The position numbers were made by a program, and so were the translations under genes. Under the pieces are notes generated by a model. That model saw nothing but the letters and a program-made list of their open reading frames with translations. It ran no database searches and was not told the DNA's origin. Below are positions 6,288 through 45,284 of a stretch of DNA of 64,000 nt, piece after piece (position 1 is the first letter of the stretch; every line of letters starts with the position of its first letter). This DNA is from a virus (lineage: Duplodnaviria > Heunggongvirae > Uroviricota > Caudoviricetes), in IMG/VR virus record IMGVR_UViG_3300026521_000088, positions 32,551-96,550 of that record. One strand, given 5' to 3'.

Positions 6288-7321
6288 TATATCTCCTCTA
6301 AGATAATATCACCATTATCTATATATAATTTATAATTTGTATCTGTACTAGCATCATCATATACTGTATCTGTACTAGATGTTTGTAGTTTTGTAGCTTT
6401 ATTAGACTCTAAAGTATCTATGTCACTTTGCAATTCCTCTAATCCAGCTTGTACATCAGTACTAGTTAAATTACCACTAGCTTCTACTTTAATCTCACTA
6501 GCTTTTTCTTCTATATTTCTATTAACTAATGTCCAATCATCTATACTTCCAGCATCATCTACTTCAGCTATTAATGTATCACCTATAGCTACTGATACAT
6601 CATAAAATTCTCCAGCTACAGTTACAGTATACATATCACCAATAGATATAGTTCCAGTATCTGGGTTATCATCTAGGTTTGGTTCATTAGCATCTGCATC
6701 ATAACTACCTTTGTAACTCATTTCACTAGCTACAGCAGCATCTACTTGCTCTTTAATAGCACTATTTATAAGTTCTGGTGTGTATCTATATACAGTATCA
6801 TCTGATGTATCTTTAATTTGATCATCAGTAGCTACAGATACTCTATTGTTATAAGCAGTCTCTATCTCTTCATCTGTTTGGTCAGCAGTAGCTCCAGATT
6901 CAATACCGTCTAATTTATCTCCATCAGCAGAAACATCTCTACCATCTACTGTACCATCTGTTACTAAATTACCAACTGATAAATCACCATCAATAGAAGC
7001 AGTACCATCAGCATTTAAAGTCATACTTTCTAGTACATTACCATCTTTATCTTTTAAAGTGAATGCAGTGGATAAGCCATCTGAAGCTACCGTAAGTTCA
7101 GCATATTTTGTACTAGCATCATCAGCTGTTTTATTAGCCCATAATTGTACTACTCTATCATCTGTAACAATAGGAGTATCTTCTGTTAAAGCTACAGTAA
7201 ATTTTTTAGTAACTACATTCTCTTCATCATCTCGCATAAAACCCATTTCATCTAAGTCTTCTATAAGTTTAAGTAAGAAGACACCAAAAGGGTCTATTAT
7301 ACGATTATAATTTATAATCAT
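6287..7321 (-). CDS. acidic tail-fibre-like structural protein
   Basis: 344 aa, very Asp/Thr/Ser rich, contiguous (ATGA-type overlap) with fibre genes on both sides. Confidence 0.45.
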   Translation of the reverse strand: MIINYNRIIDPFGVFLLKLIEDLDEMGFMRDDEENVVTKKFTVALTEDTPIVTDDRVVQLWANKTADDASTKYAELTVASDGLSTAFTLKDKDGNVLESMTLNADGTASIDGDLSVGNLVTDGTVDGRDVSADGDKLDGIESGATADQTDEEIETAYNNRVSVATDDQIKDTSDDTVYRYTPELINSAIKEQVDAAVASEMSYKGSYDADANEPNLDDNPDTGTISIGDMYTVTVAGEFYDVSVAIGDTLIAEVDDAGSIDDWTLVNRNIEEKASEIKVEASGNLTSTDVQAGLEELQSDIDTLESNKATKLQTSSTDTVYDDASTDTNYKLYIDNGDIILEEI

Positions 7322-11497: not shown

Positions 11498-14488
11498 TTA
11501 CTCACTATAACTATCATAAGCTGTAGACTCTGTATCATCATCTATAATACCCCAGATATACTCATTCATAGGACTATTTCTTTTAGCTTTTTTAACTGCT
11601 TCAGCATTTTCAAATTCTTTAGCAGGATATATAATATCTATCATATTTATTTGAGAAATTAAATCTAATCCATCATCATGTTTAGAACCTATACTTGTAT
11701 ATGATGTATACTTAATCTCTTCCATAAGTTCTCTCATATCTGGAGTATCTTTTAAAGCTTCATTAAACCATATCTTTCTATTTTGAAATAATGGTAACAT
11801 TTGTCTAAATCTCCAATGTTTATTACCACCTTCAAGTCTACTCCTAATACCTTCAGAACCTATCTTAGCTCCTTTTTGTCTAGCAAAACTAAAGAATGTA
11901 TTTCTATCTACCATCATTTGTTTTAAAGAGTATATATGAATATTTTGTTGTCCATCTACTTCAACACCTACATCTACCCATCTAGCATTACCAAATACAC
12001 TTTCAACCATTTTAAAAGTTGTTCTATATTGTTCTTCTAACTCCATTTTCTTTAATGTTAAATCTACTAAAAATATATCACCACTACTAGCTACTGCCCA
12101 TAATGCTGCACCACTAAAATCACTACCTTTACTACCTGTACTTGTATAATCTGTAGTTAAATACCAATTGTATTGACTAGCTCTAGCTTTTATTTTAGCT
12201 GTGTCTATAAATTGTATTAAAGACTCTGGTACTAACCTATCTTCTTCATTACTAATTCTTAGCATTAATTCTTGATTAAATTCCCTTATAGAATTAGTCC
12301 CTAAAGCATCTTCATATCTTTCTTTAACTCTTTCGTAAGAATGCATAGGTTCCCAAGCTCCTACAAACTCTTTCTTAGTTATATTGTCATCTATCTTTTC
12401 ACACATAGGTATACAAACTGGTGTCCAAGTACCAGATTCTAATGCTTGGTATACTGGATCATTTTTATTAAATGGTGTATTAATTGCTATAATTTTACCT
12501 TTCTTACCACCTAAAGCATTTTCAGCATCAGCATACATCATAGACTTAAGTTTTTTCATAATAATTTTAGAATTAGCATCAGCCTCATTCTTAATAATAT
12601 CATCAAAAATAATACAGTTTTTAGATATACCAAATAGTGTACTATAAGCATGGTTTTCCCCAATTACTTTTTCAATATCCCTATTATTACACTGTATAGG
12701 TATTAAGTCTAGGTCTTTTGTTTCCTCTACACTTTTTACTTGTCTCCATAACATACCATTCTCTATATGTACTTGTTTAAACTTTACCTTTGTACTGGCC
12801 GATACATCAATATTCAGTATTTGCTTTACATTTTCTACCAATCTTAGTTCCCATTGATGGTTAATATTGTGTTCTTTGTTAGTTGAATTAAATACTTGTA
12901 CACCACTTCTTTTTGTATTGCGTATATAAGTAGGTAGTCCTAAACGACTAGAAATGACTTGTAGTTGTTTTAATACATTTAAATTAACACTATTTATCCT
13001 TACCTGTTGACTAACTTTCTTATTATCTATATATCCATCAGCAGCTATGTAACCAAGTAATAAATTTTTTTGCTTATTTAAGGTTATACGCATTACCCAA
13101 TCTGGCATATTTTTAATACTATTTCCACTTTTTTGGGACTTCAACCAATTTGACATGTCTGTATCGGATGTAACAATATTATAACAACCTGAACCAAACC
13201 TCTGGATACTATACTTTTTACCAAGACTATCTAGTATACTACATACTTTTTTACCAATAGTTTTCTCTTGGGTATTTGCTATAGTGTAAATTATATTACT
13301 ATTAGATATAGTCCCATCACCTAACCACAAACCATAAAGCCACCACCAATCATCGTTATCAAACTCAGTAAACTGAATCTTTTCTAACTTACTTATTTTC
13401 CTAGTTTTAAGAATCCTACCTTTAGAATCTCTAGCTATGATTTCATCATAGTATTTAACACATTCTACCAATGGAGGGTTGATTTCAGTATAATCAATCA
13501 TTGACCCAATCCAATGTCTATTTGTTAACTTGCTAGCTTCTTCCCAGCAAGCTTCATATTCAATATAATTTTTTACTAATTTTTTACTAGTTCTACACCA
13601 TACTTGGTCATTGGTACACTTTTTAGCCCAGTATTTGTGGTCTTTGCTAACAAATTCTGATTCTGTCAAACCTCTTACTTTAATTTCATACCCATTTTCA
13701 ATAAACCCTTCAGCCTTGATGGGGTGTTCTTCTATAGGATATGTACCGTACTCTGTTGTAACAATAGTCCCTCTTACATGACATTGAGGTCTTTCTGTTT
13801 TATATCTAATACCCCTTACAGAACCTCCAGCAGCACCTTTAACTTTATACATAAATGACCTAGATTTTATAGACTTATTTTCACCAGGTAGTTGCTTTCT
13901 TAAGAACTCACATTCTTCATCTGTAAATCTCATTTTTTCAAAATATTCTTTACAAAATAATGAATCCTCACATATATCTCTAATAGTATTAGCTTGAACT
14001 TTAGCTCCAGCTTGTTGTGAATCACCAAACCCTACTACAAACATAACATCACCAAAATTAGGCATCTTACCTTTTATTGCCAAGTATATAGGTAAAAATG
14101 CTGTAATAACTGTACTTTTAGCTAAACCTCTAGAACACATAATAGCTATTTTTCTATTATTAATTCTAATACTATCTTGAATTTCTTTTGAATATGGGTA
14201 TTGATGTCTTTTAATATTACCAAATACTAAGTCTACTAAAAAGTAATGCATCAAAGAGTTTTCCACTTCAAAGTCTTGTCCTTGTACTAATCGCATTAAA
14301 CTAAAAAATTCTATAGCATCTCTGCTAGGTAAATACCCACCAAATTTTAAATCCATATTATTTAGTGCTTCATCAATATTAAATTTATATTTTTTATTAG
14401 GTACTAACTGCACATCAGGCAAATCTTCTATATCGTTAGCGTTTTCTAAATACTCTTCCCACTCTTTACTTATTTTTTTATTACTCAC
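11498..14488 (-). CDS. terL: terminase large subunit interrupted by an in-frame intein with LAGLIDADG homing endonuclease
   Basis: N-extein has terminase Walker A-like MCSRGLAKST; the sequence resumes as CIIFDDIIKNE (Walker B hhhhDD) after a 389-aa insert beginning with Cys (RPQ|CHVRGTIV...) and ending ...ISKN|C; insert carries two LAGLIDADG motifs (WLYGLWLGDGTIS and LLLGYIAADGYID). C-terminal part is nuclease-domain sized. Confidence 0.85.
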   Translation of the reverse strand: MSNKKISKEWEEYLENANDIEDLPDVQLVPNKKYKFNIDEALNNMDLKFGGYLPSRDAIEFFSLMRLVQGQDFEVENSLMHYFLVDLVFGNIKRHQYPYSKEIQDSIRINNRKIAIMCSRGLAKSTVITAFLPIYLAIKGKMPNFGDVMFVVGFGDSQQAGAKVQANTIRDICEDSLFCKEYFEKMRFTDEECEFLRKQLPGENKSIKSRSFMYKVKGAAGGSVRGIRYKTERPQCHVRGTIVTTEYGTYPIEEHPIKAEGFIENGYEIKVRGLTESEFVSKDHKYWAKKCTNDQVWCRTSKKLVKNYIEYEACWEEASKLTNRHWIGSMIDYTEINPPLVECVKYYDEIIARDSKGRILKTRKISKLEKIQFTEFDNDDWWWLYGLWLGDGTISNSNIIYTIANTQEKTIGKKVCSILDSLGKKYSIQRFGSGCYNIVTSDTDMSNWLKSQKSGNSIKNMPDWVMRITLNKQKNLLLGYIAADGYIDNKKVSQQVRINSVNLNVLKQLQVISSRLGLPTYIRNTKRSGVQVFNSTNKEHNINHQWELRLVENVKQILNIDVSASTKVKFKQVHIENGMLWRQVKSVEETKDLDLIPIQCNNRDIEKVIGENHAYSTLFGISKNCIIFDDIIKNEADANSKIIMKKLKSMMYADAENALGGKKGKIIAINTPFNKNDPVYQALESGTWTPVCIPMCEKIDDNITKKEFVGAWEPMHSYERVKERYEDALGTNSIREFNQELMLRISNEEDRLVPESLIQFIDTAKIKARASQYNWYLTTDYTSTGSKGSDFSGAALWAVASSGDIFLVDLTLKKMELEEQYRTTFKMVESVFGNARWVDVGVEVDGQQNIHIYSLKQMMVDRNTFFSFARQKGAKIGSEGIRSRLEGGNKHWRFRQMLPLFQNRKIWFNEALKDTPDMRELMEEIKYTSYTSIGSKHDDGLDLISQINMIDIIYPAKEFENAEAVKKAKRNSPMNEYIWGIIDDDTESTAYDSYSE
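12617..13783 (-). mobile_element. intein (aa 236-624 of TerL) with double-motif LAGLIDADG homing endonuclease domain
   Basis: Boundaries inferred from Cys1 (C236) and C-extein Cys (C625) flanking ...SKN; LAGLIDADG blocks present; insertion immediately upstream of terminase Walker B. Confidence 0.7.
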
Positions 14489-15266: not shown

Positions 15267-16577
15267 CTATATATCATTTTTACCAAATATAACTTGTAAG
15301 AAAGGTACAGCTTTATTTAACTTTTGTCTGTTTCCATAGATAGTTTTAAATGTATTACCAGTTAATACATTATTTTCATATATAACTTCAGGTACATCAT
15401 AGTTATACTCATACTTAAACCCTATAGTAACATTACTATCATCACCTATTTCAGAAGATGTCATAGGATATATAAACTTAACTCTACCATTAGATAAAGT
15501 TACTATAAATACAAAATTATTAGTATATTTTATAGGGTAGTACCAGTAAGGTAAGTAAGAGTCTCCAGTTTCTTCTACAGCATACTGCCAAAGATTAGTA
15601 CCAGAATAAGTATAAAACTCTACATTTTTTTCATCATCTCCACTAGTTTGTAAACATAATCCTGTATCTGTTAATGTTATACCAACTATACCTGAGATAC
15701 CTTTTACATTACTATATCCTATCTCTATATATGGTTGTGGTATATTATCTTTAATAGGATATAAATATACTTTAGGTTCATCTACATTATATTTAGTATT
15801 GGTAACAGCTATGTAAGAATGTCCTGATACTGTAGTATAAGCATCAAATATAACACCAAAATCTTCTATATCTGGTTTATCTAAAATTTGGTAACCACCA
15901 AAATCTTTATCAACTAAATATACATTACTTTCTCTTGATAAGTACTCACCATCACTATAAGCAGGTGTACTAGAACAAACAAGTACATTATCTAACAATG
16001 TAAGGTTATGACCAAATTCTCTTATACTATCATTTATTTTAAACTCTGGTCTAAAGGTATCTACAATATTATTATTAGTTCTATCAAATTTAAATATAGC
16101 ACCATAAGGTTGAGAATCTGGTAATTCAGAACCATAACCTGTATCTGCTAAATATAGGTAATTTTCTGTAAGTACAACATTTGGTCCTACATTAGCATCA
16201 TCTTTTTCATATAGATCTCTACCCTCTTGTGGTTCTACCATATATATTTCTTCATCATATATACCTAATTTATCAAACCTATACACATAAGCTTTAGCAG
16301 TAACTTCATCATAATCAATAACACCTATAGCTATATGATTCTCATACACACTTGCTGTATGCCCAAATTCCATAAAGAATGGTTCTAAATAATTTCTAGG
16401 TCTTATAGTATATAATTTCTCACCTGTTAAATTATCATAAGCATATACTGTACCTATTGATTTAGTATAATCTACAGAATAATCTAATTCACCTATAAAT
16501 GTTATCTCATTTGTACTAGCTAATATAAAACAATATTCTGAACCTGTATCAGAAACTTTTGCTATATGTTCTGTCAT
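15267..16577 (-). CDS. hypothetical late protein (first gene of the minus-strand module)
   Basis: 436-aa Tyr/Asp/Gly-rich ORF right downstream of an extended -10-type promoter; function undetermined (could be portal or another virion protein). Confidence 0.5.
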   Translation of the reverse strand: MTEHIAKVSDTGSEYCFILASTNEITFIGELDYSVDYTKSIGTVYAYDNLTGEKLYTIRPRNYLEPFFMEFGHTASVYENHIAIGVIDYDEVTAKAYVYRFDKLGIYDEEIYMVEPQEGRDLYEKDDANVGPNVVLTENYLYLADTGYGSELPDSQPYGAIFKFDRTNNNIVDTFRPEFKINDSIREFGHNLTLLDNVLVCSSTPAYSDGEYLSRESNVYLVDKDFGGYQILDKPDIEDFGVIFDAYTTVSGHSYIAVTNTKYNVDEPKVYLYPIKDNIPQPYIEIGYSNVKGISGIVGITLTDTGLCLQTSGDDEKNVEFYTYSGTNLWQYAVEETGDSYLPYWYYPIKYTNNFVFIVTLSNGRVKFIYPMTSSEIGDDSNVTIGFKYEYNYDVPEVIYENNVLTGNTFKTIYGNRQKLNKAVPFLQVIFGKNDI

Positions 16578-16599
16578 TTTAAACCTTTATTTTTATATT

Positions 16600-16608
16600 A
16601 TTATACCA
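16600..16608 (-). promoter_or_regulatory. extended -10 promoter (TGGTATAAT) for late operon
   Basis: Minus-strand TGGTATAAT ~20 nt upstream of the SD/ATG of the 15267..16577 gene; the same ATTATACCAT plus-strand motif recurs upstream of the 14481..15200 gene. Confidence 0.4.
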
Positions 16609-16820
16609 TTATATTTATCTACATTTACACTTGATGGTATATAAGTTTAAAATATAATAATTATAACTTATATTATACCTATAAAAATAACTAATATAAT
16701 AAAATATAATTTTTTAAAAGATACTACTATAAAATATTACATAATTTTAAAAAGTATTTTTCTTAAATTTTCAAATTTTCAAATTTTTATTTTTTTCTGT
16801 ATTTTTACAGTATACCCTAT

Positions 16821-16837
16821 TATCATCATAGATGATA
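16821..16837. promoter_or_regulatory. perfect 7-3-7 palindrome TATCATC-ATA-GATGATA in the divergent switch region (operator-like)
   Basis: Seen directly in sequence; next to a C6 run and ACTTCGTAT direct repeats in an otherwise AT-rich non-coding 390-nt region between the two divergent modules. Confidence 0.4.
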
Positions 16838-16968
16838 AACCACTCCCCCCTCTATCTACTTCGTATATATGGGACCCATAATTATATTTCATATAATTAT
16901 TTACTACAGATACTTCGTATCTTTCGTTAGGTTCTATGTGATAGAAATTTTAAATTAAAAGGGTAGTT

Positions 16969-17184
16969 ATGACAAGTACAGAAGTAAGTAAGTATTTTGC
17001 TAAAAAATTAGCAAAGAAATTTGGTACAGGTATTGAGGATATTAAAGAAGCAGGAGCTTTTGTGGCAAATGCAGGATTTAAGCTTAAATCAAAAAAAGAC
17101 GGTAAAGTATACAAAGTATACATGAGTGAGATCCTAGCTCTGATGCACAGTATGCGAGAAGACAAGGATATACCAGAGCTATAA
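16969..17184 (+). CDS. small basic protein (first early gene)
   Basis: 71-aa ORF with AAAGGG SD; mirror minus-strand ORF 16950..17165 judged antisense artefact. Confidence 0.4.
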   Translation: MTSTEVSKYFAKKLAKKFGTGIEDIKEAGAFVANAGFKLKSKKDGKVYKVYMSEILALMHSMREDKDIPEL

Positions 17185-17272
17185 GCTTTGGTACAGATTA
17201 AAAAATCTCAGTAAGATAGATACTATAGGTGCTAGAAATAGCTAATAATAAATTAAATTTAAAGGATAAGTA

Positions 17273-17626
17273 ATGGAATATGCAGTAGTAATAATTGGAT
17301 TAGTGATTGTTTGGAAGATGCTTAAAACAAATGAAGCAAAAACTATAGGTAGAGAACTTACAACAGTTACAGTATCAGGTTTAAAGTCAGCAAGTAACAT
17401 TGCAAAAAGTGGTGAGATAATCACCAAAGATTGGCTTGAAGAAAGTCTAATCGAGTCTGTTGAACAATCTACTAAATTAGAATCTAGATTAGCTAAACTT
17501 ACATTAGACCAAGTTAAGTCTGAAAATGCTGAACTTAAAGGTGTAGATAATACAGTTAAAGAGAAATACGAAGCTGAACTTGCTGCCAATATGCAAAAGT
17601 TAGAAAATTTGAGAAAAGGATTATAA
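17273..17626 (+). CDS. membrane-anchored coiled-coil protein
   Basis: N-terminal TM (AVVIIGLVIVW) followed by charged helical region. Confidence 0.5.
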   Translation: MEYAVVIIGLVIVWKMLKTNEAKTIGRELTTVTVSGLKSASNIAKSGEIITKDWLEESLIESVEQSTKLESRLAKLTLDQVKSENAELKGVDNTVKEKYEAELAANMQKLENLRKGL

Positions 17627-17877
17627 GATGAATAATAATCAACTTAAAGCAGCAATAGCTCTGCTAGGTTCTAAAGCTACTGTAGCTGACTTAGCAAAAC
17701 TTATGAAAATAGTTAAAGCTTAGAGAAATCTAGGCTTTAGCTAAATTAGTCAATGTAGGATTGTTGTTAGAAAACCTTAATAAGTTAAAATGTATAAATC
17801 TAACAACAATATTTGAAAAAACATAAGTTAAAACTATTATAGTAGGACTTATATATTATGTCTGTAGGAGGATAAAA

Positions 17878-18126
17878 ATGAGAAAAATCAAAAAAAGTAA
17901 TGGATCTAGATATGATCTGTATCTAGGAAAAGATTTAGAGTTTATGGAGTTTACAGCTCCAAATTATGATACATATGCACCTGATGGTGCATATGTAAAA
18001 ACAGTAGATAAAAAGGTATATTGGATAGGTTTAATGTCTACATCTAGTGGAAATATATGCAATATAATAACAAAAAAAGAAATAGAAACTAGATTAAATA
18101 ATAACTGGAATATCTGTTCTTGTTAA
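17878..18126 (+). CDS. hypothetical protein
   Basis: 82-aa ORF with AGGAGG SD (ctgtaggaggataaaaATG). Confidence 0.45.
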   Translation: MRKIKKSNGSRYDLYLGKDLEFMEFTAPNYDTYAPDGAYVKTVDKKVYWIGLMSTSSGNICNIITKKEIETRLNNNWNICSC

Positions 18127-18408
18127 AAAAATCAAATAAACTCAAATATATAATATAAGTTTTCTGTACTTTGTTATATATTTGAATAAATATTACTCAA
18201 AAATAAAAAGTAGGATTTATATATTTTAAAATCAAATTAACTCAAACATAAGCTATATAATATATAGTCATCAAATGAGTTATAGAGTATAAGATACATA
18301 GGATTAAATTCTAATGCTAAAGTCTATCAAGGTAGGCTTTATGGATTAGACTAGCTGTGCAATAGTGCCAACAAAACCAAATAAAATAACCAAATAAAAG
18401 GAAAACCA

Positions 18409-19068
18409 ATGAATACAAATAACCAGACACAACAAACATTTAAAGAATTATTAGCAGCAAAAGTAGCAGAACAACAAGCTAAAGCAGAAGAGTTAAGGCT
18501 AGAAGCACAGATGAAATTACTTGATGACGAAAAGTATTTAGAGTCAGTTCGTAAGACAGAAGCTATGAAAAAAGAGACATCAAGACTAAATACAATTATG
18601 AGATCTATCAATACTATGGAACCATTTGTTACACCAAAAGGTGAGAAATTTGGTATTAGATGTTTTCCAGTAAGTTTCTTTGGATTAGGACATAGCTTAG
18701 TAATGGGTATTGTCTTGTCATCTGCTCAAGCCTTTACAGAAGAAAAGTTAATGGAATATTCAGCTATTTCAGGAGTAAATGAAATTCTATTACAACAAGC
18801 TGTTATAGCATTTGGCAGACCAGCTTACTTTAGTAAAGATGGTAAATTGATAGATGAAGAGAAAGGAAACTTTGAAGAGTTCTCAGCTCTACTAACATCA
18901 GTCTATATGGAGCTAGAACTTATGGAGTTTGCTGCTTCAGATATTACAGAAGCTAAGTATAATGCTTATTTTGAAAGAGAGTTAAAGAAAGCTAAAATCC
19001 AAAAAGAAGAGTTTGAGAAAGCTGAGATTCTAGATAATGAAGGAGGTGACTTCGTTATCAATGACTAA
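18409..19068 (+). CDS. putative N-terminal fragment of split T7-like single-subunit RNA polymerase
   Basis: Assignment by position and size: 219 aa + 231 aa places the DWRGR motif at ~aa 450, comparable to T7 RNAP (DWRGR at ~421-425); helical, charged composition like the T7 N-terminal domain. No diagnostic motif in this piece itself. Confidence 0.4.
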   Translation: MNTNNQTQQTFKELLAAKVAEQQAKAEELRLEAQMKLLDDEKYLESVRKTEAMKKETSRLNTIMRSINTMEPFVTPKGEKFGIRCFPVSFFGLGHSLVMGIVLSSAQAFTEEKLMEYSAISGVNEILLQQAVIAFGRPAYFSKDGKLIDEEKGNFEEFSALLTSVYMELELMEFAASDITEAKYNAYFERELKKAKIQKEEFEKAEILDNEGGDFVIND

Positions 19069-25933: not shown

Positions 25934-26019
25934 GCTGCTATGGTGGAAAGGTAGACACTGAAGGCTTAAAACCTTCTGACTGAAAAGTCGTCCCAGTTCG
26001 AATCTGGGTAGCAGTACCA
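25934..26019 (+). tRNA. tRNA-Leu (anticodon TAA), type II with long variable arm, CCA encoded
   Basis: Acceptor GCTGCTA/TAGCAGT, anticodon arm GAAGG-CTTAAAA-CCTTC, variable stem-loop, T arm CCCAG-TTCGAAT-CTGGG, then ACCA. Confidence 0.8.
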
Positions 26020-26021
26020 AA

Positions 26022-26095
26022 TCTCCAATAGCTTGAAGGTCAAGCAAATGACTGTTAATCATTAGTTGTAGGTTCGATTCCTACTTGGAGAGCCA
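26022..26095 (+). tRNA. tRNA-Asn (anticodon GTT), CCA encoded
   Basis: Acceptor TCTCCAA/TTGGAGA, D arm GCTT-GAAGGTC-AAGC, anticodon arm AATGA-CTGTTAA-TCATT, T arm GTAGG-TTCGATT-CCTAC, then GCCA. Confidence 0.8.
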
Positions 26096-31519: not shown

Positions 31520-32488
31520 ATGGAAATTTTTAAGAAAAATGAATATGAGCAAGTTATAGGTGTAAATACAAAATTCATTATTGGTAGTATAGTAAGTATT
31601 ATTGTAATTGTTGCAGCACTATTAAGTTTTTATACTATAAATAGTGGGTATGTAGGTGTACTATCTACAATGGGTAAATACCATAAAAATGAAATAAACC
31701 CTGGACTTAACTTTAAGATACCTTATATGCAAAGTGTAACAGTGTTTAATACTAAAGCGCATGTGGTGAATTATAAAGGTTCAAAAGATCTACCTGATAC
31801 TGAAGACATTATCAATAAACCTTATATTGTGGTTCTTGATAAGAACAATCAAAATATTGTGATTGAGTTATCAGTACAGTATCAACCAGTTGCATCTGAA
31901 GCATCTGAGATTCTTACACAATATGGTAAAACATACTTTTATAAAGCTATTAACCCTATCGTAAGAGAGGTTGTAAGAGATGTAATTGGAAAATATGAAG
32001 CAGAAACTATTGCTTTAAATAGAACAGCTATAGCTACAAAACTTAAAGATACACTTATCAATAGATATAAAAATAATCATCAATTCTCTATCTTAGAAGT
32101 ATCTCTAAGAAACATTAGATTACCTAAACTTATTAAAGATAAGATTAATCAAGTACAAGTAGCTGCACAAGAAGAGCAAAGGTTAGCTAGAGTTGCTAAA
32201 CAAGCTCAAAGACATCAAGAGATTAAGACTATTGAAGCTAATACAAGAATGATTGAAATTACTACTAAAGCTAAAGCTCAAGCAGAAAAGAAAAAGATTG
32301 AAGCAGATGCTAAAGCTTATCAAATTCTAACAGAAGCTAATGCTAAATCAAAAGCTAACGAAGAGATTGCTAAATCTATAACACCAACATTGATTCAATA
32401 TAATCAAATTAACAAATGGTCTGGTATATATCCATCTACATATATGGGTAGTGGTATGAATAATGATGTAATTTTAAATATGAAATAA
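31520..32488 (+). CDS. SPFH/band-7 (stomatin/prohibitin/HflKC-like) membrane protein
   Basis: N-terminal TM, then SGYVGVLSTMGKY...PGLNFKIPYMQSVTVFNTKAH (canonical SPFH start) and a long coiled-coil QEEQRLARVAKQAQRHQEIKTIEA... tail. Confidence 0.75.
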   Translation: MEIFKKNEYEQVIGVNTKFIIGSIVSIIVIVAALLSFYTINSGYVGVLSTMGKYHKNEINPGLNFKIPYMQSVTVFNTKAHVVNYKGSKDLPDTEDIINKPYIVVLDKNNQNIVIELSVQYQPVASEASEILTQYGKTYFYKAINPIVREVVRDVIGKYEAETIALNRTAIATKLKDTLINRYKNNHQFSILEVSLRNIRLPKLIKDKINQVQVAAQEEQRLARVAKQAQRHQEIKTIEANTRMIEITTKAKAQAEKKKIEADAKAYQILTEANAKSKANEEIAKSITPTLIQYNQINKWSGIYPSTYMGSGMNNDVILNMK

Positions 32489-37429: not shown

Positions 37430-38521
37430 ATGAATAACCAAACTAAATTTTTTTTTTTAAATAATAGTGGTACAGTAAGAGTTATAGAACTGGATAAAGA
37501 TACAATACAAGAATCACTGGTACCTGCTATATATGAAGTAAACTATAATCAAATGACAGGATATTATCTTACATATATAACTGATAAGTATAAATTACCT
37601 AAGCGTATTCTTGGTTCTATAAACAAAAGAGTAGATAAGGTAATCAATACCTACAATAATGAACCAAATAAAAATACTGGTGTACTATTACTTGGGGAGA
37701 AAGGTTCAGGTAAAACTCTACTATCTCAGGTTATTGCGAACAAAATGATAGAGCAAAATATTCCCGTTATTACAGTAAATACACAATTTTCTGACTCTTC
37801 TTTTATAAATTTCATTAAATCTCTTGATAATATCTGTCTAATATTTGATGAGTTCGATAAGCATTATTATAGACTAAAAGATGAAGGTGAAGCTGATGAT
37901 ACACAAACAGAAATCCTAAAACTCTTTGAGGATAATAATGATAAAAAATCAAAGAATTTAAATATCATTATTGCAAATAATGGGTATAGAATATCAGATT
38001 TTCTAATAGATAGACCTTCAAGGTTTAAATATAGATGGCACTATAATAAAGTAGAACCAGAAGTGATAGAAGAATTATGTTCTATACATAATCTTCCTAG
38101 TGATAAAACAAAACAACTTGTAGATTACTCAAAATCTGTTAAGTTGTTCTCATTTGATATTCTTGAATCGATAATTAAAGAATGTATATTATACTCTAAT
38201 GAAGATTTTAATGATATTATAGAGGATATGAATATACCTAAAGTAAAACAAGAAATAAAATTTAAAATTGAAGAAGTAGAATATAAAGGTAAAACATATA
38301 AGGCACAAAAAGAGGTATATATTAATCATTATTTTAAATTAAATAATATATACGATGCTATACAAGATAAAAATATACCTCATGAATCTATGTCATATAG
38401 TTTAGATAACCTTATTTACTCGGATAGTACAACAGAAATATACAGTATTATGAGAAATGAAATGTTAATAAAAGTAACTAAGGTATTTGAGACTGTGGAT
38501 TATAGAAATCTATTAGTGTAA
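37430..38521 (+). CDS. AAA+ ATPase
   Basis: Walker A LLLGEKGSGKTLLS, Walker B CLIFDEFD; T11 homopolymer at codons 7-10 (37449-37459). Confidence 0.65.
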   Translation: MNNQTKFFFLNNSGTVRVIELDKDTIQESLVPAIYEVNYNQMTGYYLTYITDKYKLPKRILGSINKRVDKVINTYNNEPNKNTGVLLLGEKGSGKTLLSQVIANKMIEQNIPVITVNTQFSDSSFINFIKSLDNICLIFDEFDKHYYRLKDEGEADDTQTEILKLFEDNNDKKSKNLNIIIANNGYRISDFLIDRPSRFKYRWHYNKVEPEVIEELCSIHNLPSDKTKQLVDYSKSVKLFSFDILESIIKECILYSNEDFNDIIEDMNIPKVKQEIKFKIEEVEYKGKTYKAQKEVYINHYFKLNNIYDAIQDKNIPHESMSYSLDNLIYSDSTTEIYSIMRNEMLIKVTKVFETVDYRNLLV

Positions 38522-38631
38522 AGGCTATAATAATGAAATTAGATTCTTTGAACCTATTAAAAACTCACATAAATGTGAATTATATTGTTTGAAATATGAA
38601 AAATATAGATATTTACCATGGAGACGAAAAA

Positions 38632-39201
38632 ATGTCACAATATAAAAATAGACAAAACAAAAGAAACTATTCGGTAGGAGTGTATCTTGGGAGATTTCAA
38701 CCTTTTCATCATGGGCACAACTCAATAATTCAACAAATTATAATGGATGGTAGAATACCATTATTACTTATAGGACATAAAGGTTCTTTAAATGATAGAC
38801 ATCCATTATCTATAACTCAAATAAAAGAGCTTATTAGATTGTTATATCCAGAAAACCAGGTAATGATTGAATATGTTGAGGATAATGACAGTTGGGATAA
38901 ATGGTACGATACTTTAATGTACAAAATAAATCTAAATACTACACTAAACAATATTGTCATATATTCCCATGAAAAAGAGTGCGACAATACTACTTTTAGG
39001 TTTAGAGATAAATACTTTGTAAATTGTTCACAAAATGAATGTTTTATAGTAGATGATATACCAATAAAATATTGTGAAGAGTATATTGACAATAAAGGAC
39101 AAGTACTATCAGCAACAAAAATAAGAGAAGATAAAGAATATGCTATGCAACATTTAGATGCTAGAATTTTTAAACAATTAGAAGAGTGGAGGTTATGGTG
39201 A
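38632..39201 (+). CDS. nadM: nicotinamide mononucleotide adenylyltransferase (NadM/NMNAT-type cytidylyltransferase fold)
   Basis: GVYLGRFQPFHHGHNSII = (H/T)xGH nucleotidyltransferase motif of NMNATs; track ORF starts at 38596 but the ATG at 38632 has a better SD (ggagacgaaaaaATG). Confidence 0.7.
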   Translation: MSQYKNRQNKRNYSVGVYLGRFQPFHHGHNSIIQQIIMDGRIPLLLIGHKGSLNDRHPLSITQIKELIRLLYPENQVMIEYVEDNDSWDKWYDTLMYKINLNTTLNNIVIYSHEKECDNTTFRFRDKYFVNCSQNECFIVDDIPIKYCEEYIDNKGQVLSATKIREDKEYAMQHLDARIFKQLEEWRLW

Positions 39202-39803
39202 AAACAATTAAAATATTAAGTAAAGAGCCGCTTGCAAAACCAAAGTTTCTTAAAACAGAACTTGTAACTTACCAAAAAGATAATGAAAAACCAAGACAAT
39301 GGGAAGTTTTACAAGGATTTGATACAGTACACATTCTCATTAAAAATACTGATACAAACAAGTTCTTGTTAGTCAAGCAAAACAGAATACCTGTAGCTGT
39401 CAAAAATACTAATCAAGGTATTTGTATAGAATGTTGTGCAGGGATTATTGATAAATACCAACATTCAAAATCATCTTTATATCAAGCTAAATTAGTAGCT
39501 AGAGATGAGATACTTGAAGAATTAGGTTATCATAAAGAAAATTTAAAGGATATTGAATTAGTAGACACATTACTAAGTTCAGTAGGCACTGTTGGTTCTA
39601 AACAATACTTGTTCTATTGTGAAGTTAACGATTCTGAATATACAGGACAACATTTAGAACCAGATGAAGAAATTGAAGTTATTGAATATACAAGTAATGA
39701 TTTAATGGATTTAATATTTAAAGAGTATAATACAGACTCGGTGACTAAATATTTATGTTTAAATCATATTGGAGAAATATATAACATAAAGGATAATTTA
39801 TGA
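39186..39803 (+). CDS. Nudix hydrolase (ADP-ribose pyrophosphatase-like; NatV C-terminal-domain equivalent)
   Basis: Nudix box-like ...LVARDEILEELGYH...; overlaps the NMNAT gene by 16 nt and the NadV gene by 4 nt. Confidence 0.6.
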   Translation: MEVMVKTIKILSKEPLAKPKFLKTELVTYQKDNEKPRQWEVLQGFDTVHILIKNTDTNKFLLVKQNRIPVAVKNTNQGICIECCAGIIDKYQHSKSSLYQAKLVARDEILEELGYHKENLKDIELVDTLLSSVGTVGSKQYLFYCEVNDSEYTGQHLEPDEEIEVIEYTSNDLMDLIFKEYNTDSVTKYLCLNHIGEIYNIKDNL

Positions 39804-41239
39804 GTAAACTATTAGAATCAACATTAATAACAGGAGATAGTTATAAATATGGGCATCCATTTCTATTAAGAGATGATATAGCTTATCAATATAACTATAT
39901 GGAAGCAAGAAAAGGCGATGATATAATATTTGTAGGTATGCAATATTATATTAAAAAGTTTCTAACAAAAGTACCATCAAAGAAACAAATTAAAAAAGTT
40001 AAAAAGATGGCATTAAAGCATGGAATTTATTTTGATGAAAAGATGTGGAAATACATCAATAAATTAGGATATTATCCAATTAGAATTAAAGCAATACCAG
40101 AAGGAACAAAAGTACCATCAGGTGTACCATTAGTTACTTTTGAAAATACAGATCCAGAATGTGTAGGATTAGTAGGTTTTCTTGAAACTCTGTTTATGAA
40201 AGTATGGATGCCAACATCGGTTGCTACGCAAAGCTATGAAGTTAAACAGATGTTATTAAAGTATGGTTCACCTGAATGGGCTGAATATGCTTATCACAAT
40301 TTTGGTTCTAGAAGCACAACATCATTAGAACACGATATGATTGCTGGATACGCACACCTAACACAATTTAAAGGAACTGACAGCTTTTCTTCACTATTCT
40401 TTTGCGAAAAATACTATAATCAAGGGAAAGAACCAGCAGGATATTCAGTATTAGCAACAGAGCACTCTGTTACTACAATGAATGGTATAGAAAACGAAGA
40501 AGAGTTTGTATATAAAACATTATTAAATAATCAAAATAGTCAAATTATCTCATTTGTTGGAGATTCTTATGATATTTATAAATTTACAGATTTTGTAACA
40601 AATCCAAACGGTAGAATAAGAAAATTACTAAACAAAAGAAAAAACCAAAAACTTGTAATTAGACCAGATAGTGGAGAACCAATTAAAGTACTTAAAGGTG
40701 TTATTGATATAATGAAAAACAATGATTGTTTTAATTCTGGAATAGAAGGTAAACTATTGTCGCCTAAATACGGAATTCTTTGGGGTGATGGTATAACACA
40801 AAAAATAATTGAACACATTCTACAATACTTCACTAATGAATCTTATAGACAATTCATGATAAATAGTAGTACAGACATACTAGCAACTAAAATTAAAAAT
40901 TTACAATTACTAGCAGCAGAAAACTTTGTATTTGGTTCTGGGACAGACTTAGTTAATTCAAAAGATAGAGATACTTATGGATTTGCTATTAAATGTTCAT
41001 CAGTTACACTTAAAGATGGTACAGAGCTAGATGTATTCAAAAATCCTATAACTGCACCTACTAAAAAATCGAAAAGAGGTAGAGTAGAAACAGCATTTAA
41101 CACAGCAAAGAAAACATATAGAACAACTAAAGGTGGGTATAAAGATATAGAAACGAAAGCGTTACAGTTAATATTTGAAGATGGTAAGTTATATAATGAA
41201 ACTTCCCTAGAAAACATTAGAAGTAACAGTTTAAAATAA
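39800..41239 (+). CDS. nadV: nicotinamide phosphoribosyltransferase (NAMPT/NadV)
   Basis: N-terminal TGDSYKYGH (NAMPT DSYK motif), 479 aa, typical NAMPT length and composition. Confidence 0.75.
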   Translation: MSKLLESTLITGDSYKYGHPFLLRDDIAYQYNYMEARKGDDIIFVGMQYYIKKFLTKVPSKKQIKKVKKMALKHGIYFDEKMWKYINKLGYYPIRIKAIPEGTKVPSGVPLVTFENTDPECVGLVGFLETLFMKVWMPTSVATQSYEVKQMLLKYGSPEWAEYAYHNFGSRSTTSLEHDMIAGYAHLTQFKGTDSFSSLFFCEKYYNQGKEPAGYSVLATEHSVTTMNGIENEEEFVYKTLLNNQNSQIISFVGDSYDIYKFTDFVTNPNGRIRKLLNKRKNQKLVIRPDSGEPIKVLKGVIDIMKNNDCFNSGIEGKLLSPKYGILWGDGITQKIIEHILQYFTNESYRQFMINSSTDILATKIKNLQLLAAENFVFGSGTDLVNSKDRDTYGFAIKCSSVTLKDGTELDVFKNPITAPTKKSKRGRVETAFNTAKKTYRTTKGGYKDIETKALQLIFEDGKLYNETSLENIRSNSLK

Positions 41240-41510
41240 ATATAAAGGTAAAAATTATAAAAGATATAAAAAGACAAGAACTAGAAATAGGTGATAAAGT
41301 AGTTGTAAGCTACCCACCATTTAATTCTCAGGAACTTACAATGGACTTTGGTGAGGTAGTAAAAGTAGCTCCAACATCAGCAACAATTAAGCTATCGGAT
41401 AATACAACTAGAACTTTTAAAGTAAGTAGAGGTTATGGTAGTATAAATGACTACTCTAAAAGAGTCATCAAACTATAAGAAAATACCAACTAAAACATAA
41501 GGATAAAATA

Positions 41511-41819
41511 ATGAATAAAAATAGACTTGTAATACAAGCTTGTGGTGATTATGTAGCATTTCATGAAATGGATATAGATGTAGTATATGAGTTTGGTACT
41601 TGTAATATCATAAATATACTAGAAGAGATAAAGGATGATAGACTTGAACTTATATGTGATAAAATAGATAAAGATGAACAATTAACAAACGAAGAACAAG
41701 AGCTCTTAGATGAGATAGTAGAAGAGTATGTAGATAATTATACAGGAGATTATTATGACTTAACTATTGCTTTTGGTTATAACATAGAAGGTAATTGGTA
41801 CATAAATTTTTATAAATAA
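41511..41819 (+). CDS. small acidic protein
   Basis: 102 aa, Glu/Asp/Tyr-rich. Confidence 0.45.
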   Translation: MNKNRLVIQACGDYVAFHEMDIDVVYEFGTCNIINILEEIKDDRLELICDKIDKDEQLTNEEQELLDEIVEEYVDNYTGDYYDLTIAFGYNIEGNWYINFYK

Positions 41820-41822
41820 ATA

Positions 41823-41848
41823 GGTATAGAGTGTTACCACTCTATACC
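41823..41848. terminator. bidirectional terminator hairpin (11-bp perfect stem ggtatagagtg / cactctatacc, loop ttac) at a convergent gene junction
   Basis: Seen directly; sits between the plus-strand 41511..41819 gene and the 3' end of the minus-strand 41834..42337 gene. Confidence 0.55.
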
Positions 41849-42337
41849 TTGTCCTTCTAATCCATTATCAGCATCCATTATACTATATGCAGATAATCTT
41901 TGTTTAGGAACTACTACTTGTTTAGTAGGTTGATTCGAAACAGTAGGTGTTACTTTTTTAGGTTGTAATCTTTGTTTAACTTTATGTACTACTTGTCTAG
42001 GTTTAGCTATAACAGTAGTAGGTATAATTTTATCTGTATCTTGTACAACTTGAAAATTTGGAGGAACTAATGTATTATACTCATCGCCTACTCTATTAGC
42101 TAAAATTTTATTAGATGTACCTATATAAGTAGGTGTTTCAAATAAAGTATTACCTAATCCTTTAGTTACTATAGGTACAATATTTGTAGATTTACTAGAT
42201 TGTGTAGATAAACCTCTAATACTATTTAACAGCTCTTCATCATTATCTGGGTATTTTAAGGCAATAGATGTAAATGGTGATACTTCCTTGTTTTGATTAA
42301 CTCTTTGTTTTAAATGATTTAACATATTACTATGCAT
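41834..42337 (-). CDS. hypothetical Pro/Gln/Lys-rich protein (only minus-strand gene inside the plus module)
   Basis: 167-aa ORF; its own divergent promoter region lies at 42338-42430. Confidence 0.45.
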   Translation of the reverse strand: MHSNMLNHLKQRVNQNKEVSPFTSIALKYPDNDEELLNSIRGLSTQSSKSTNIVPIVTKGLGNTLFETPTYIGTSNKILANRVGDEYNTLVPPNFQVVQDTDKIIPTTVIAKPRQVVHKVKQRLQPKKVTPTVSNQPTKQVVVPKQRLSAYSIMDADNGLEGQGIEW

Positions 42338-42758: not shown

Positions 42759-43910
42759 ATGACAAAAGTAGAGTTAAAACTAATAGATGCGAATGTTAAA
42801 GCTCAGTTACAACAAAAAGAAGTAGGTCCACTATTTATAGTTGGGTTGCCAGGTACTGGTAAAACTTCAAGTATTGTAACATTAGCTAATACTAATAATA
42901 TAAATATTTTAGTAGTATCAGCACCTACATTAACTGTGGAAGTCCTTACAGGTTTACCTCATGATAATATAGTAGATACTAACCAAGGTAAAAAAACAGT
43001 AGTATCTTGGAGTGTACCTGAGATTATTGCTCAAGCTAATAAATTAAGTGAAGACAAAGATACTATCTTACTTATTGATGATTTTCATGCTACACCTAAG
43101 CATATTCAAGCTTATTTTTTTAAATTGTTATTAGGTAGAAGTATTGGTTCACATAAATTAGAAGATAATATTGCTATTTTAGGTACTATGAATAATAGTG
43201 AAGAAGCTGGTTTTTATGGTATTAACTCTGCTATTCGAAATAGGTTAGCTGTGCTAGATGTTAAGTTTAATTTCGATTATTGGTTTAAAAATTATGGAAA
43301 TGGCTTACATTATATTATAAAATCATTCTTAACATTATATAAAAGTTCAGTACAAGAAGAAGAAAATACATCATTAGAAGGTTATGCTACAGCTAGAAGT
43401 TGGACATATTTTAGTAATATGTTAAAAGAACTAGATGATGAATTTATAAAAGTTAATATTGTTAAATTAGCTAAAATGTATATATCTACAGATATGGCTT
43501 ATAAACTAGAACAACATACTATATATATGGATCAATTTGATTTTAAATATAAAGTAGAGACTAGAGAAGATATTGATTTAGAGTCTATAGATCAAATGCA
43601 AAAGATGATGTTTTCATATATTCTTAACTTTATTGATACTGTACAAGATGCTAAATATTTATTAGAAATAATGAGTAAAAATAGTAAAGATGATGCTTTT
43701 ATTGGATTTATTGTAGGTGAGTTGTACTCTATATATCTAAGTGATAAATACTCAGATGGTATTAGATTTATGGTTGATACATTATTAGATTTTAAAATTA
43801 TTAAATCTAATTATCCTAATACTTCTACAGCAGTATTAAATACTGTAAAAAAAGTTAAATTTAAAAATTTAAATAGTGCTATGGAAATAGCTACTAATTT
43901 TATATTATAA
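42759..43910 (+). CDS. AAA ATPase (MoxR-like)
   Basis: Walker A FIVGLPGTGKTSSI, Walker B ILLIDDFH; followed directly by a vWA protein as in MoxR-vWA pairs. Confidence 0.6.
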   Translation: MTKVELKLIDANVKAQLQQKEVGPLFIVGLPGTGKTSSIVTLANTNNINILVVSAPTLTVEVLTGLPHDNIVDTNQGKKTVVSWSVPEIIAQANKLSEDKDTILLIDDFHATPKHIQAYFFKLLLGRSIGSHKLEDNIAILGTMNNSEEAGFYGINSAIRNRLAVLDVKFNFDYWFKNYGNGLHYIIKSFLTLYKSSVQEEENTSLEGYATARSWTYFSNMLKELDDEFIKVNIVKLAKMYISTDMAYKLEQHTIYMDQFDFKYKVETREDIDLESIDQMQKMMFSYILNFIDTVQDAKYLLEIMSKNSKDDAFIGFIVGELYSIYLSDKYSDGIRFMVDTLLDFKIIKSNYPNTSTAVLNTVKKVKFKNLNSAMEIATNFIL

Positions 43911-43919
43911 GGGTATATA

Positions 43920-45284
43920 ATGATACAAATTAAACAAGAGATTATTAACAAATTTACTACTAAAGTAGTTACTGAATCTAATATTATTGCTGATGTTAAT
44001 AAAACTTCAGCAATATTTATTAAACTACTATCCCATTTTAAATTTAATTTTAAATTTAGAAAAGTAGAAAATTTAAATTCATATCTTTTTACAGATATAC
44101 AAAAAAAGTATAAAATTATGGTAAATACATCTAAAACTAAAGCAGATATTATTGATGTAAATATTTATTATACTAAAGAGAAAGAACTACAAGAGATATT
44201 AAAAGTACTTGATGTATCAAATAAACCTGATGGTTATTGTGGTTTTATCGTGACTAGAGAGTTATTTAAAGTGTTATTAGGACATACAACTTATACACAT
44301 TACAATAAATATAAATATTTAGTAACTTCTAAACTTGATGAAAAATATGCTTATCTCGTTTTAGTTATTGCATCTAATTTATATATTGAGCATATTGTAG
44401 CTGGTATATGTAATGATAATAATGTACAATTTGATACAAGTAAATTAAAATATCTAGATGATATTTTATTAAAAAATATAAATTCATATCCTAGAGTTAT
44501 TAGAGATGTAGTTGAACAATTAAATATTATTTTGTCTGTTAGTACAAATTTATATAAAGATGATGTTATCTTATACTCTGATAAATTGCTAGAATATGAT
44601 GAACACACTATTTTTATTGCAGAAGTATTAGAAACTACAATTAACTCAGAAGTAAGAGGTTTTACAAGTTCTCCTATTTTTAAAACAGCATTAGCTTCTA
44701 AAAATACTGTAAATACAGACTGGATTAAAGAGCTAAAGAAACATATTAGCAGGTTTACTTATGAACGAACTAATGATATTGAATCTACTTGGGGTAAGTA
44801 TAACAATACTTATAAAAATATCTTTACTGCACCTGGAGCTAATTGCATTACACATAAATTAAAATTTGTACTATCTATTGATCAATCAGGTTCTATGACA
44901 AATGAAGATATTGCTTTGATTCAGGAAGTTATGAAAGTTATTGCAAAAGATACTGCTGAAGCTACTATTATTTTACATGATACAGAAATTGCTGATATTA
45001 TTGATATAGTAGATTTAGAAGAAGATGAGTTAAAGAAAAAACTTATTGAATCTACACATAGAGTGTGTACTGGTGGTACTTCACATAAGCATGTATTTGA
45101 ATATCTATCTACTTTAACAAATTTAGAAGATATTCTATATATATCTTTCAGTGACAATTATAGCGATATTGAAGAGGCTTACAAAAAATATAGAAAATAT
45201 ATGAATAAACTAGATTGTATATTTTTATCTACATCTGATAAAAAAGTAAATATAAATAGTATAAAAAATATTAAGATATTGTAA
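43920..45284 (+). CDS. von Willebrand factor A (vWA) domain protein
   Basis: MIDAS motif LSIDQSGSMT (DxSxS) in the C-terminal half; starts with the ATGATACAA (MIQ) motif. Confidence 0.55.
   Translation: MIQIKQEIINKFTTKVVTESNIIADVNKTSAIFIKLLSHFKFNFKFRKVENLNSYLFTDIQKKYKIMVNTSKTKADIIDVNIYYTKEKELQEILKVLDVSNKPDGYCGFIVTRELFKVLLGHTTYTHYNKYKYLVTSKLDEKYAYLVLVIASNLYIEHIVAGICNDNNVQFDTSKLKYLDDILLKNINSYPRVIRDVVEQLNIILSVSTNLYKDDVILYSDKLLEYDEHTIFIAEVLETTINSEVRGFTSSPIFKTALASKNTVNTDWIKELKKHISRFTYERTNDIESTWGKYNNTYKNIFTAPGANCITHKLKFVLSIDQSGSMTNEDIALIQEVMKVIAKDTAEATIILHDTEIADIIDIVDLEEDELKKKLIESTHRVCTGGTSHKHVFEYLSTLTNLEDILYISFSDNYSDIEEAYKKYRKYMNKLDCIFLSTSDKKVNINSIKNIKIL

Follow-up and report, generated by a model that had tools for sequence, protein, structure and literature searches.

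The 64,000-nucleotide stretch of viral DNA analysed here, hereafter called the window (positions 32,551 to 96,550 of IMG/VR record IMGVR_UViG_3300026521_000088), stems from an uncultured tailed phage with AT-rich DNA (~26% GC) and encodes a large terminase, tail proteins, an amidase endolysin, helicases, a DNA polymerase, a primase and two tRNAs. ORF (open reading frame) calling on the window revealed that positions 38632-41239 are filled by three plus-strand ORFs in the same direction, which code for a predicted stand-alone NMNAT (nicotinamide mononucleotide (NMN) adenylyltransferase; ORF1), a predicted Nudix hydrolase (ORF2) and a protein that is assigned to the NAMPTs (nicotinamide phosphoribosyltransferases, NadV in phages; ORF3). 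With a probability of roughly three in four, they constitute an NAD+ salvage or reconstitution module of the type called NARP2, in which the Nudix hydrolase most likely recycles ADP-ribose and whose likely benefit for the phage is the upkeep of NAD+. This interpretation is supported by the families to which the proteins belong, by their conserved catalytic residues and predicted folds, and by the conserved linkage of the genes. A megablast search with positions 38000-42000 against the GenBank phages (50,697 records) returned no match and no near-identical relative, and identical or 80%-identical fragments were found in metagenome assemblies only; because the phage lacks a close cultured relative, there was no annotation to borrow.

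ORF1 (38632-39201, 189 amino acids) starts with an ATG at 38632 and ends with a TGA at 39199-39201. Its longest frame begins at an ATG at 38596; however, the downstream ATG is taken as the start because a Shine-Dalgarno-like GGAG (38620-38623) is located 8 nt upstream and because the database protein P0001, which is 100% identical to ORF1, has a length of 189 amino acids. ORF2 (39198-39803, 201 amino acids from GTG 39198) has alternative starts at ATG 39195 and GTG 39186. Its start is probably GTG 39198, since homologs begin with MKTIKIL, the start assigned by a gene caller in an identical contig precedes the stop of ORF1 by 4 nt, and a GGAGG Shine-Dalgarno sequence (39188-39192), situated within the 3' end of ORF1, precedes this GTG by 5 nt. 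ORF1 and ORF2 thus probably overlap by 4 nt (GTGA); a start at ATG 39195 would mean a 7-nt overlap, and the 16-nt overlap reported in an earlier reading of this DNA, made without database searches (the sequence-only reading), is true only of the longest ORF2 frame from GTG 39186. The 4-nt overlap that it gave for ORF2 and ORF3 corresponds to the ATGA junction of the two genes: ORF3 (39800-41239, 479 amino acids) starts with an ATG at 39800, which lies 6 nt downstream of an AAGGA Shine-Dalgarno sequence (39789-39793). Translational coupling of the three genes had also been proposed. In close relatives, however, small ORFs lie between the genes; in the 79%-related contig L025 these have 86 and 53 codons, so that the gene order of the module is conserved and the tight coupling is not.

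The three ORFs are not chance reading frames, since each of them has many homologs, profile E-values go down to 1e-112, and lengths of 189 to 479 amino acids are long for DNA of 26% GC. The genes are probably transcribed as a single unit. A scan for sigma-70 promoters was uninformative in this AT-rich DNA (37 sites versus 44 expected by chance), and a site at 38503-38531, upstream of ORF1, is a candidate only. The single terminator-like hairpin of the region is located on the minus strand (41822-41849), after the minus-strand gene 41834-42337. In the 270 nt past the NAMPT gene (41240-41510), the sole ORF has 45 codons (41341-41478).

Predicted activities of the three proteins

By its sequence, ORF3 is clearly a NAMPT, which bears out the earlier assignment. 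The protein comprises the NAMPT_N domain and the catalytic barrel, and both are recognized by Pfam above threshold (NAPRTase, PF04095, 8e-25, 88.4 bits, cutoff 20.8; NAMPT_N, PF18127, 3e-12, 47.1 bits, cutoff 25). ORF3 also matches phrog_448 (1e-111) and the NCBIfam model PRK09198 (376 bits, which is under the 405-bit cutoff), and among the structures of the PDB, human NAMPT is matched with E-values of 1e-67 to 1e-69 and human and other NAMPT structures taken together with 1e-49 to 1e-69. In a BLASTP comparison, ORF3 is 34% identical to human NAMPT (E 4e-74), for which a reference sequence was used that matches PDB 2gvg_A over residues 1-491. Catalytic and ligand-binding residues of NAMPT are Y18, F193, D219, H247, D279, D313, D16, R311, G353, D354, G384, R196 and G383 (PMC3665594). 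Twelve of these 13 residues are kept in ORF3 (ORF3/human: D13/D16, Y15/Y18, F168/F193, R171/R196, D194/D219, H222/H247, D255/D279, R288/R311, D290/D313, G329/G353, D330/D354 and G380/G383), the exception being human G384, which corresponds to T381; the possible absence of catalytic residues, which the sequence-only reading had named as an argument against a NAMPT, is therefore not seen, and the TGDSYKYGH motif quoted in its favor is present. D219 of NAMPT is commonly associated with the choice of nicotinamide rather than nicotinate as the substrate, and H247 with autophosphorylation. Relative to the human enzyme, ORF3 carries an insertion of ~17 residues (about residues 351-367).

The best matches of ORF3 in cultured phages are the full-length NadV proteins of Ralstonia phage RsoM2USA, Acidovorax phage ACP17, Synechococcus phages B3/B23 and the KVP40 group (32-34% identity, 1e-51 to 1e-66). 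In contrast, NAMPT-family genes of 87-90-kb Escherichia phages, whose products are probably of the Namat type, are matched only partially (from ~residue 80) and with E-values of ~1e-22. Strong full-length matches to KVP40-type NadV and partial, weaker ones to the Escherichia phage proteins are in keeping with a Nampt rather than with a Namat of the NARP1 pathway.

ORF1 is predicted to be a stand-alone NMNAT of the NadM/archaeal/NadR class. It contains the HxGH motif as GRFQPFHHGH (residues 20-29; the GRFQPFHHGHN cited in the sequence-only reading) and the SxTxxR motif as SATKIR (residues 160-165). The Pfam model CTP_transf_like (PF01467), which had been suggested as a check, does match ORF1, but with 19.8 bits it falls just short of the 21-bit cutoff. 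Of 16 NCBIfam models that match, 14 describe NMN or nicotinic acid mononucleotide (NaMN) adenylyltransferases, with the NadM type scoring best (2e-10); the remaining matches are to a generic adenylyl/cytidylyltransferase-family model and, marginally, to pantetheine-phosphate adenylyltransferase (PPAT). The best PDB sequence matches are the NadM proteins of Francisella and Synechocystis and a NadR, and BLASTP aligns ORF1 with the N-terminal half of NadM of Phaeobacter phage MD18 (2e-13). A comparison of the ORF1 family with 12 fused NadM-type phage proteins by hhalign gave a probability of 99.9% and an E-value of 2.8e-35 over the NMNAT domain. The AlphaFold2 (AF2) model of ORF1 (predicted local distance difference test (pLDDT) 92.5) was likewise placed closest to NadM (2qjo and 2qjt), archaeal NMNAT and NadR by Foldseek, with template modelling (TM) scores of ~0.63-0.70 (~0.70 for the top matches, NadM and archaeal NMNAT), and PPAT and NaMN adenylyltransferases ranked lower. 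ORF1 thus appears to belong to the NMNAT branch of the HIGH nucleotidyltransferases and not, as the sequence-only reading had considered as an objection, to a cytidylyltransferase family.

An exhaustive HMMER search of 1.84 billion representative sequences identified 408 relatives of ORF1, 87 of them with E-values <1e-10; the family consists mostly of stand-alone proteins of 170-190 amino acids. Several of them are named NMNAT by JGI (Joint Genome Institute); the PHROGs label for ORF1 relatives is 'cytidyltransferase'. The family alignment keeps GRFQPFHxGH, NPL and [SA][AT]xIR, and Asp84 and Trp91 are invariant; the spacing of these two residues is that of D78 and W85 in the NMN site of KVP40 NatV (PMC13464706). 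The family also has a β-hairpin insertion of its own, H-x-K-x-x-D ... F-x-F-x-G-K, at residues ~113-132. In the ~400-residue relatives P0074 and P0102, a C-terminal NAD-kinase-like domain with a GGDGT motif is fused to the ORF1-like part, and P0078 carries a fused P-loop kinase similar to dephospho-CoA or nucleoside kinases. These kinase fusions link the ORF1 family to NAD(P) synthesis.

ORF2 is predicted to be a Nudix hydrolase of the dimeric nucleoside diphosphate (NDP)-sugar/ADP-ribose pyrophosphatase group, which includes NudK/YffH, NUDT14, NUDT5 and NudF. The Nudix assignment of the sequence-only reading is thereby confirmed at the level of profile and fold; the Pfam check that it proposed (NUDIX, PF00293) gave a match of 16 bits, below the cutoff. 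No PHROGs family was matched by ORF2. In NCBIfam, the best-fitting models are TIGR00052 (YffH/AdpP; 6e-17, 61.8 bits, under the 79.55-bit cutoff) and NudK (3e-11), and no bifunctional NadM model (PRK05379) was among the matches; ORF2 is therefore best seen as a divergent relative of TIGR00052 and not as a curated member. Sequence matches in the PDB are NUDT14 (2e-12), NudK, the ADPRase 1viu, Bdellovibrio NudF and, weakly, NUDT5. By hhalign, the ORF2 family aligns with a single human NUDT5 sequence (verified against PDB 5nqr) at an E-value of 3.4e-15 and 28% identity. The AF2 model of ORF2 (pLDDT 91.4) superimposes over its full length on NudK, Bd3179, 1viu, NUDT14, Klebsiella NudF and NUDT5 with TM scores of 0.70-0.84 in Foldseek, with 192-198 aligned columns for NudK, Bd3179 and 1viu. 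The superposition includes the N-terminal β domain that builds the swapped dimer, so the two-domain fold is present.

The Nudix box of ORF2 (residues counted from ATG 39195) extends from G83 to Y112. Compared with the canonical Gx5Ex7REUxEExGU, it contains a 7-residue insertion, which is found in the subgroup of the window protein, and an Asp instead of the usual Arg, which is Asp or Glu throughout the ORF2 family. The metal-binding glutamates E105, E108 and E109 and the G-Y pair are invariant in the family; the glutamates correspond to E112, E115 and E116 of NUDT5 and to E100, E103 and E104 of NudK. The likewise invariant E158 is the counterpart of NUDT5 E166, the general base of loop L9, and E159 that of NudK D152. 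Furthermore, F18 and W36-E37 align with W28 and W46-E47 of NUDT5, which sandwich and hydrogen-bond the purine (PMC3203587). ORF2 thus appears to be an active enzyme that would accept a substrate of the purine nucleoside diphosphate-X type; ADP-ribose is the obvious candidate in the context of NAD metabolism.

According to Iyer et al. (PMC9503650), the Nudix domains of phages belong mostly to the T4 NudE or the NadM type; ORF2 appears to be neither. The sequence-only reading had pointed out that the NMNAT and Nudix proteins are encoded by separate genes here rather than as a NatV fusion, which is correct; however, ORF2 is not a detached Nudix domain of NatV/NadM. A simple split-off of NatV was rejected, since BLASTP found no similarity between ORF2 and a phage NadM-Nudix protein (E = 12) and the hhalign comparison of the ORF2 family with NadM-type proteins (E 3.3e-7, 18% identity) covers the generic Nudix core only. 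As the Nudix protein comes from another subfamily, the arrangement points to a non-orthologous replacement and not to a simple gene split.

Conservation of the gene trio in uncultured phages

The surroundings of ORF2-type Nudix genes in metagenome and IMG/VR contigs were searched for relatives of the three genes, by family profiles for ORF1 and ORF2 and by the protein itself for ORF3. The same trio recurs in no fewer than seven further, divergent phage lineages from metagenomes, in each case within 6 kb (L001/L013, L002/L019, L003/L018, L014-16/L026, L017, L021, L025 and L027). Among the gene orders observed are NMNAT-Nudix-NAMPT, NMNAT-NAMPT-Nudix and Nudix-NAMPT-NMNAT, with or without small inserted ORFs. 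The Nudix proteins are 38-46% identical to ORF2 in most of these loci and 77% identical in the close relative L025; L027 gave a weak match. NAMPTs encoded in such split-type loci share 36-71% identity with ORF3, as opposed to 30-36% for those encoded beside fused NadM genes, and this closer relationship suggests that the trio is inherited as a module.

The split trio is a coherent but minority architecture, and the usual arrangement is a fused NadM gene followed by NadV. Among 80 sampled IMG/VR loci, 35 have a fused gene of ~340-390 codons followed by NAMPT, and only two have the split trio; as this sample was found with the motif GRFQPxHxGH and is dominated by fused NadM-type genes and unrelated long ORFs, it provides a background frequency only. 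The fused form next to NadV is also present in the cultured phages ACP17, Synechococcus B3 and Phaeobacter MD18. In KVP40, nadV and natV are not adjacent, and no NMNAT gene lies within 4 kb of nadV. A tblastn search of the 50,697 GenBank phage records detected the ORF2 Nudix family in two records only, which are copies of one uncultured 735-kb phage genome; these were set aside as evidence for linkage, as they encode a canonical Nudix protein and have no NAMPT or NMNAT gene nearby.

ORF2-type Nudix genes also occur in other NAD-related settings. In contigs L008 and L009, such a gene is located between genes for an isochorismatase (PncA-like) and an NAD synthase and beside an NMNAT-like gene (2612-6575 in L008), and no phosphoribosyltransferase was identified in this stretch of L008. 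The gene set suggests a phage module for deamidated (Preiss-Handler-like) NAD salvage. In the contig that encodes P0021 (Logan SRR14699981; 3586-4326 and 6001-8409), a gene for an Apyc1-type anti-Pycsar metallo-β-lactamase was observed 2.4 kb upstream of a Nudix-NAMPT pair, which is a hint that the module may at times be found in the company of counter-defence genes.

Surroundings of the module in the window

Directly upstream of the NAD module, an AAA+ ATPase is encoded on the plus strand (37430-38521; phrog_2376, 5e-67), which also shows a weak nSTAND3-like match; it occupies the same place in the related contigs L024 and L025. A plus-strand gene at 31520-32488 encodes a Band_7/SPFH-domain protein (Pfam, 1e-28) that is labelled as a lipoprotein in PHROGs, and a Band_7 gene lies close to the NAD module of L003 and L025 as well. 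On the other side, the plus-strand region 42759-45284 encodes an AAA ATPase (phrog_1297) beside a protein with a VWA-like C-terminal domain of the DUF2201/CoxE type, which resembles a MoxR-VWA pair.

The coding strand switches at ~16.6-18.4 kb (16577-18409), where the GC skew changes its sign and divergent gene blocks meet. The large-terminase ORF (11498-14488, minus strand) is 996 amino acids long, and the terminase profile covers residues 623-965 only; the ~600 N-terminal residues might represent an intein, a domain fused to the terminase or a wrongly joined frame. A leucine-rich-repeat protein (2752-3978, minus strand) is encoded beside the genes for tail and tail fibre (4845-7321) and may take part in receptor binding. 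The two tRNAs, tRNA-Leu(TAA) and tRNA-Asn(GTT), are encoded at 25934-26095.

Proposed pathway and competing explanations

NARP2 is defined by the presence of Nampt and an Nmnat homolog in one phage that lacks Adps, and in experiments the Nampt-Nmnat pair of KVP40 increased NAD+ and overcame Thoeris as well as further systems that deplete NAD+ (bioRxiv 10.1101/2024.02.11.579819). In the window, ORF3 is assigned to the Nampt proteins of the KVP40 clade by pairwise matches of 1e-51 to 1e-66, the Nmnat homolog ORF1 is encoded directly upstream, and no Prs-like Adps was detected among nearly all of the 48 ORFs of at least 120 amino acids that were scanned. The proposal of the sequence-only reading that the gene set represents the NadV/NatV (NARP2) pathway thus holds. 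NARP1 (Adps and Namat) and NARP3 (PnuC and NadR) would have the same end result, the rebuilding of NAD+ driven by the phage, and Namat is a homolog of NAMPT. Both were rejected, NARP1 because no Adps was found in the window and ORF3 is of the Nampt type, and NARP3 because neither PnuC nor a NadR kinase domain was found in the window ORFs scanned.

Like the NadV-NatV pair of KVP40, ORF3 and ORF1 would convert nicotinamide and phosphoribosyl pyrophosphate (PRPP) to NMN, and NMN and ATP to NAD+, respectively; the NAMPT and NMNAT proteins of the two systems are homologous, and a Nudix hydrolase accompanies the pair in both. They differ in that the NMNAT studied here is a stand-alone protein of 189 amino acids and the Nudix protein, encoded by a separate gene, comes from the NudK/NUDT14/NUDT5-like subfamily. 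With the bacterial NadM proteins 2qjo and 2qjt, its best matches, ORF1 shares HxGH, SxTxxR and two conserved NMN-site residues, Asp and Trp, but it lacks the fused Nudix domain and has the β-hairpin of its own family. Of the features of NadM/NatV proteins, the N-terminal NMNAT motifs are thus present, whereas the C-terminal Nudix fusion and a Nudix domain of the NadM clade are not. Similarly, ORF2 shares the full-length fold, the metal-binding glutamates, the loop-L9 glutamate and the aromatic stacking pair with NudK (YffH), NudF, NUDT5, NUDT14 and Bd3179, but is only 19-27% identical to them (16-27% among the top 50 Foldseek matches), has the insertion in the Nudix box with Asp or Glu for Arg and, in contrast to the NudK/NUDT5 group, is phage-encoded and linked to NAMPT and NMNAT.

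ORF2 would most likely hydrolyze ADP-ribose to AMP and ribose-5-phosphate, and a host PRPP synthetase (Prs) could then turn ribose-5-phosphate into the PRPP consumed by NAMPT. Both products of NADase cleavage, nicotinamide and ADP-ribose, would thereby be fed back into NAD+. The likely benefit for the phage would be that NAD+ is held up during infection, including against the effectors of NAD+-depleting defences, such as TIR, SIR2 and DSR. The substrates, the participation of host Prs and a role against host defence are inferred here, the last by analogy to the KVP40 experiments. It is tempting to speculate that the Nudix protein is an obligatory third enzyme, which would supply PRPP from ADP-ribose via ribose-5-phosphate and host Prs and thus form a bridge between NARP1 and NARP2 by classical reactions, and that two unrelated Nudix lineages, the fused NadM type and the unfused YffH type, have been recruited independently to NadV-NMNAT; this extension is tentative and rather unlikely to hold in full. 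In a bolder version, ORF2-type Nudix proteins may also destroy immune signals derived from ADP-ribose.

Several observations speak against the proposed module or parts of it. The variant is a prediction from sequence and modelled structures, and neither ORF1 nor ORF2 reaches the curated cutoffs of Pfam and NCBIfam. The window ORFs of at least 120 amino acids that were scanned include no PRPP synthetase, and the recycling loop would therefore depend on a host enzyme. The atypical Nudix box of ORF2 (7-residue insertion, Arg to Asp) could go along with a different activity or substrate; the subfamily also hydrolyzes GDP-mannose, UDP-glucose and oxidized nucleotides, which makes the specificity for ADP-ribose putative. 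In about six loci, an ORF2-type Nudix gene has no NAD gene within 5-6 kb; the family is therefore not exclusive to NAD modules. A role of ORF1 or ORF2 outside NAD metabolism, for instance as another adenylyl- or cytidylyltransferase or as a GDP-mannose or UDP-glucose hydrolase that reshapes the sugar-nucleotide pools of the host, with a coincidental proximity to NAMPT, would be favored by the scores below the family cutoffs, the PHROGs label of the ORF1 relatives, the activity of NudK and NUDT14 on GDP-mannose and UDP-glucose, and Nudix homologs without NAD genes nearby. However, such a role is very improbable, since eight or more lineages keep the trio together although its gene order is reshuffled, all best profile and fold matches of ORF1 are NMNATs, relatives of ORF1 are fused to NAD kinase, and the Nudix gene is also linked to PncA-like and NadE genes.

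NAD+ salvage may, however, just support phage metabolism and not counter defence, so that the same enzymes would serve a purely metabolic purpose, providing NAD+ for replication, NAD-dependent enzymes or the redox demand of a large phage. NARP2 of KVP40 raises NAD+ even in defence-free cells (bioRxiv 10.1101/2024.02.11.579819), and the module of the window is located among replication or early-type genes (AAA ATPases, helicases, polymerase) and in no recognizable anti-defence island. On the other hand, NARP2 rescues phages from Thoeris, DSR and SIR2-HerA (bioRxiv 10.1101/2024.02.11.579819), and the Apyc1 gene of one relative lies 2.4 kb upstream of its Nudix-NAMPT pair. A purely metabolic role is thus possible but the less likely explanation, and the two roles are compatible and not mutually exclusive. 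A different task could also be envisaged for ORF2, which might cap the NAD(H) pool as a regulator by hydrolysis of NAD+ or NADH, or destroy signals such as glycocyclic ADP-ribose (gcADPR) and histidine-ADP-ribose (His-ADPR). It has been suggested that the Nudix domain of NadM regulates NAD+ and that viral Nudix proteins may degrade ADP-ribose derivatives of host defence (Iyer et al., PMC9503650), and a purine-stacking pair together with a pyrophosphatase site would fit various ADP-X compounds. However, the closest characterized relatives of ORF2 are hydrolases of ADP-ribose and NDP-sugars, and NudC-type NAD(H) pyrophosphatases are absent from its sequence and fold matches, which makes such a task improbable.

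The function of the NARP2-type module is familiar; its architecture is a recurrent, undescribed variant and in this respect modestly new. The new element is the combination of a stand-alone NMNAT with a non-orthologous NUDT5/NudK-like Nudix protein, apparently inherited together with a distinct group of NAMPTs across many uncultured phages. NAD+ reconstitution by phages is a recently recognized, broad-spectrum escape from NAD+-depleting immunity, and the locus presents a NARP2-type pathway in a second architecture that recurs in uncultured phages. In the survey of NARP2, KVP40 Nmnat was used as the query and sequences of <200 residues were discarded (bioRxiv 10.1101/2024.02.11.579819); stand-alone NMNATs may therefore have escaped it, and the prevalence of NARP2-like pathways may be underestimated. 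Furthermore, the convergent recruitment of Nudix proteins suggests that the handling of ADP-ribose belongs to the logic of the pathway. If the Nudix protein is indeed an obligatory third enzyme, the Nudix step would be selected in its own right and would have been overlooked in the two-gene definition of NARP2.

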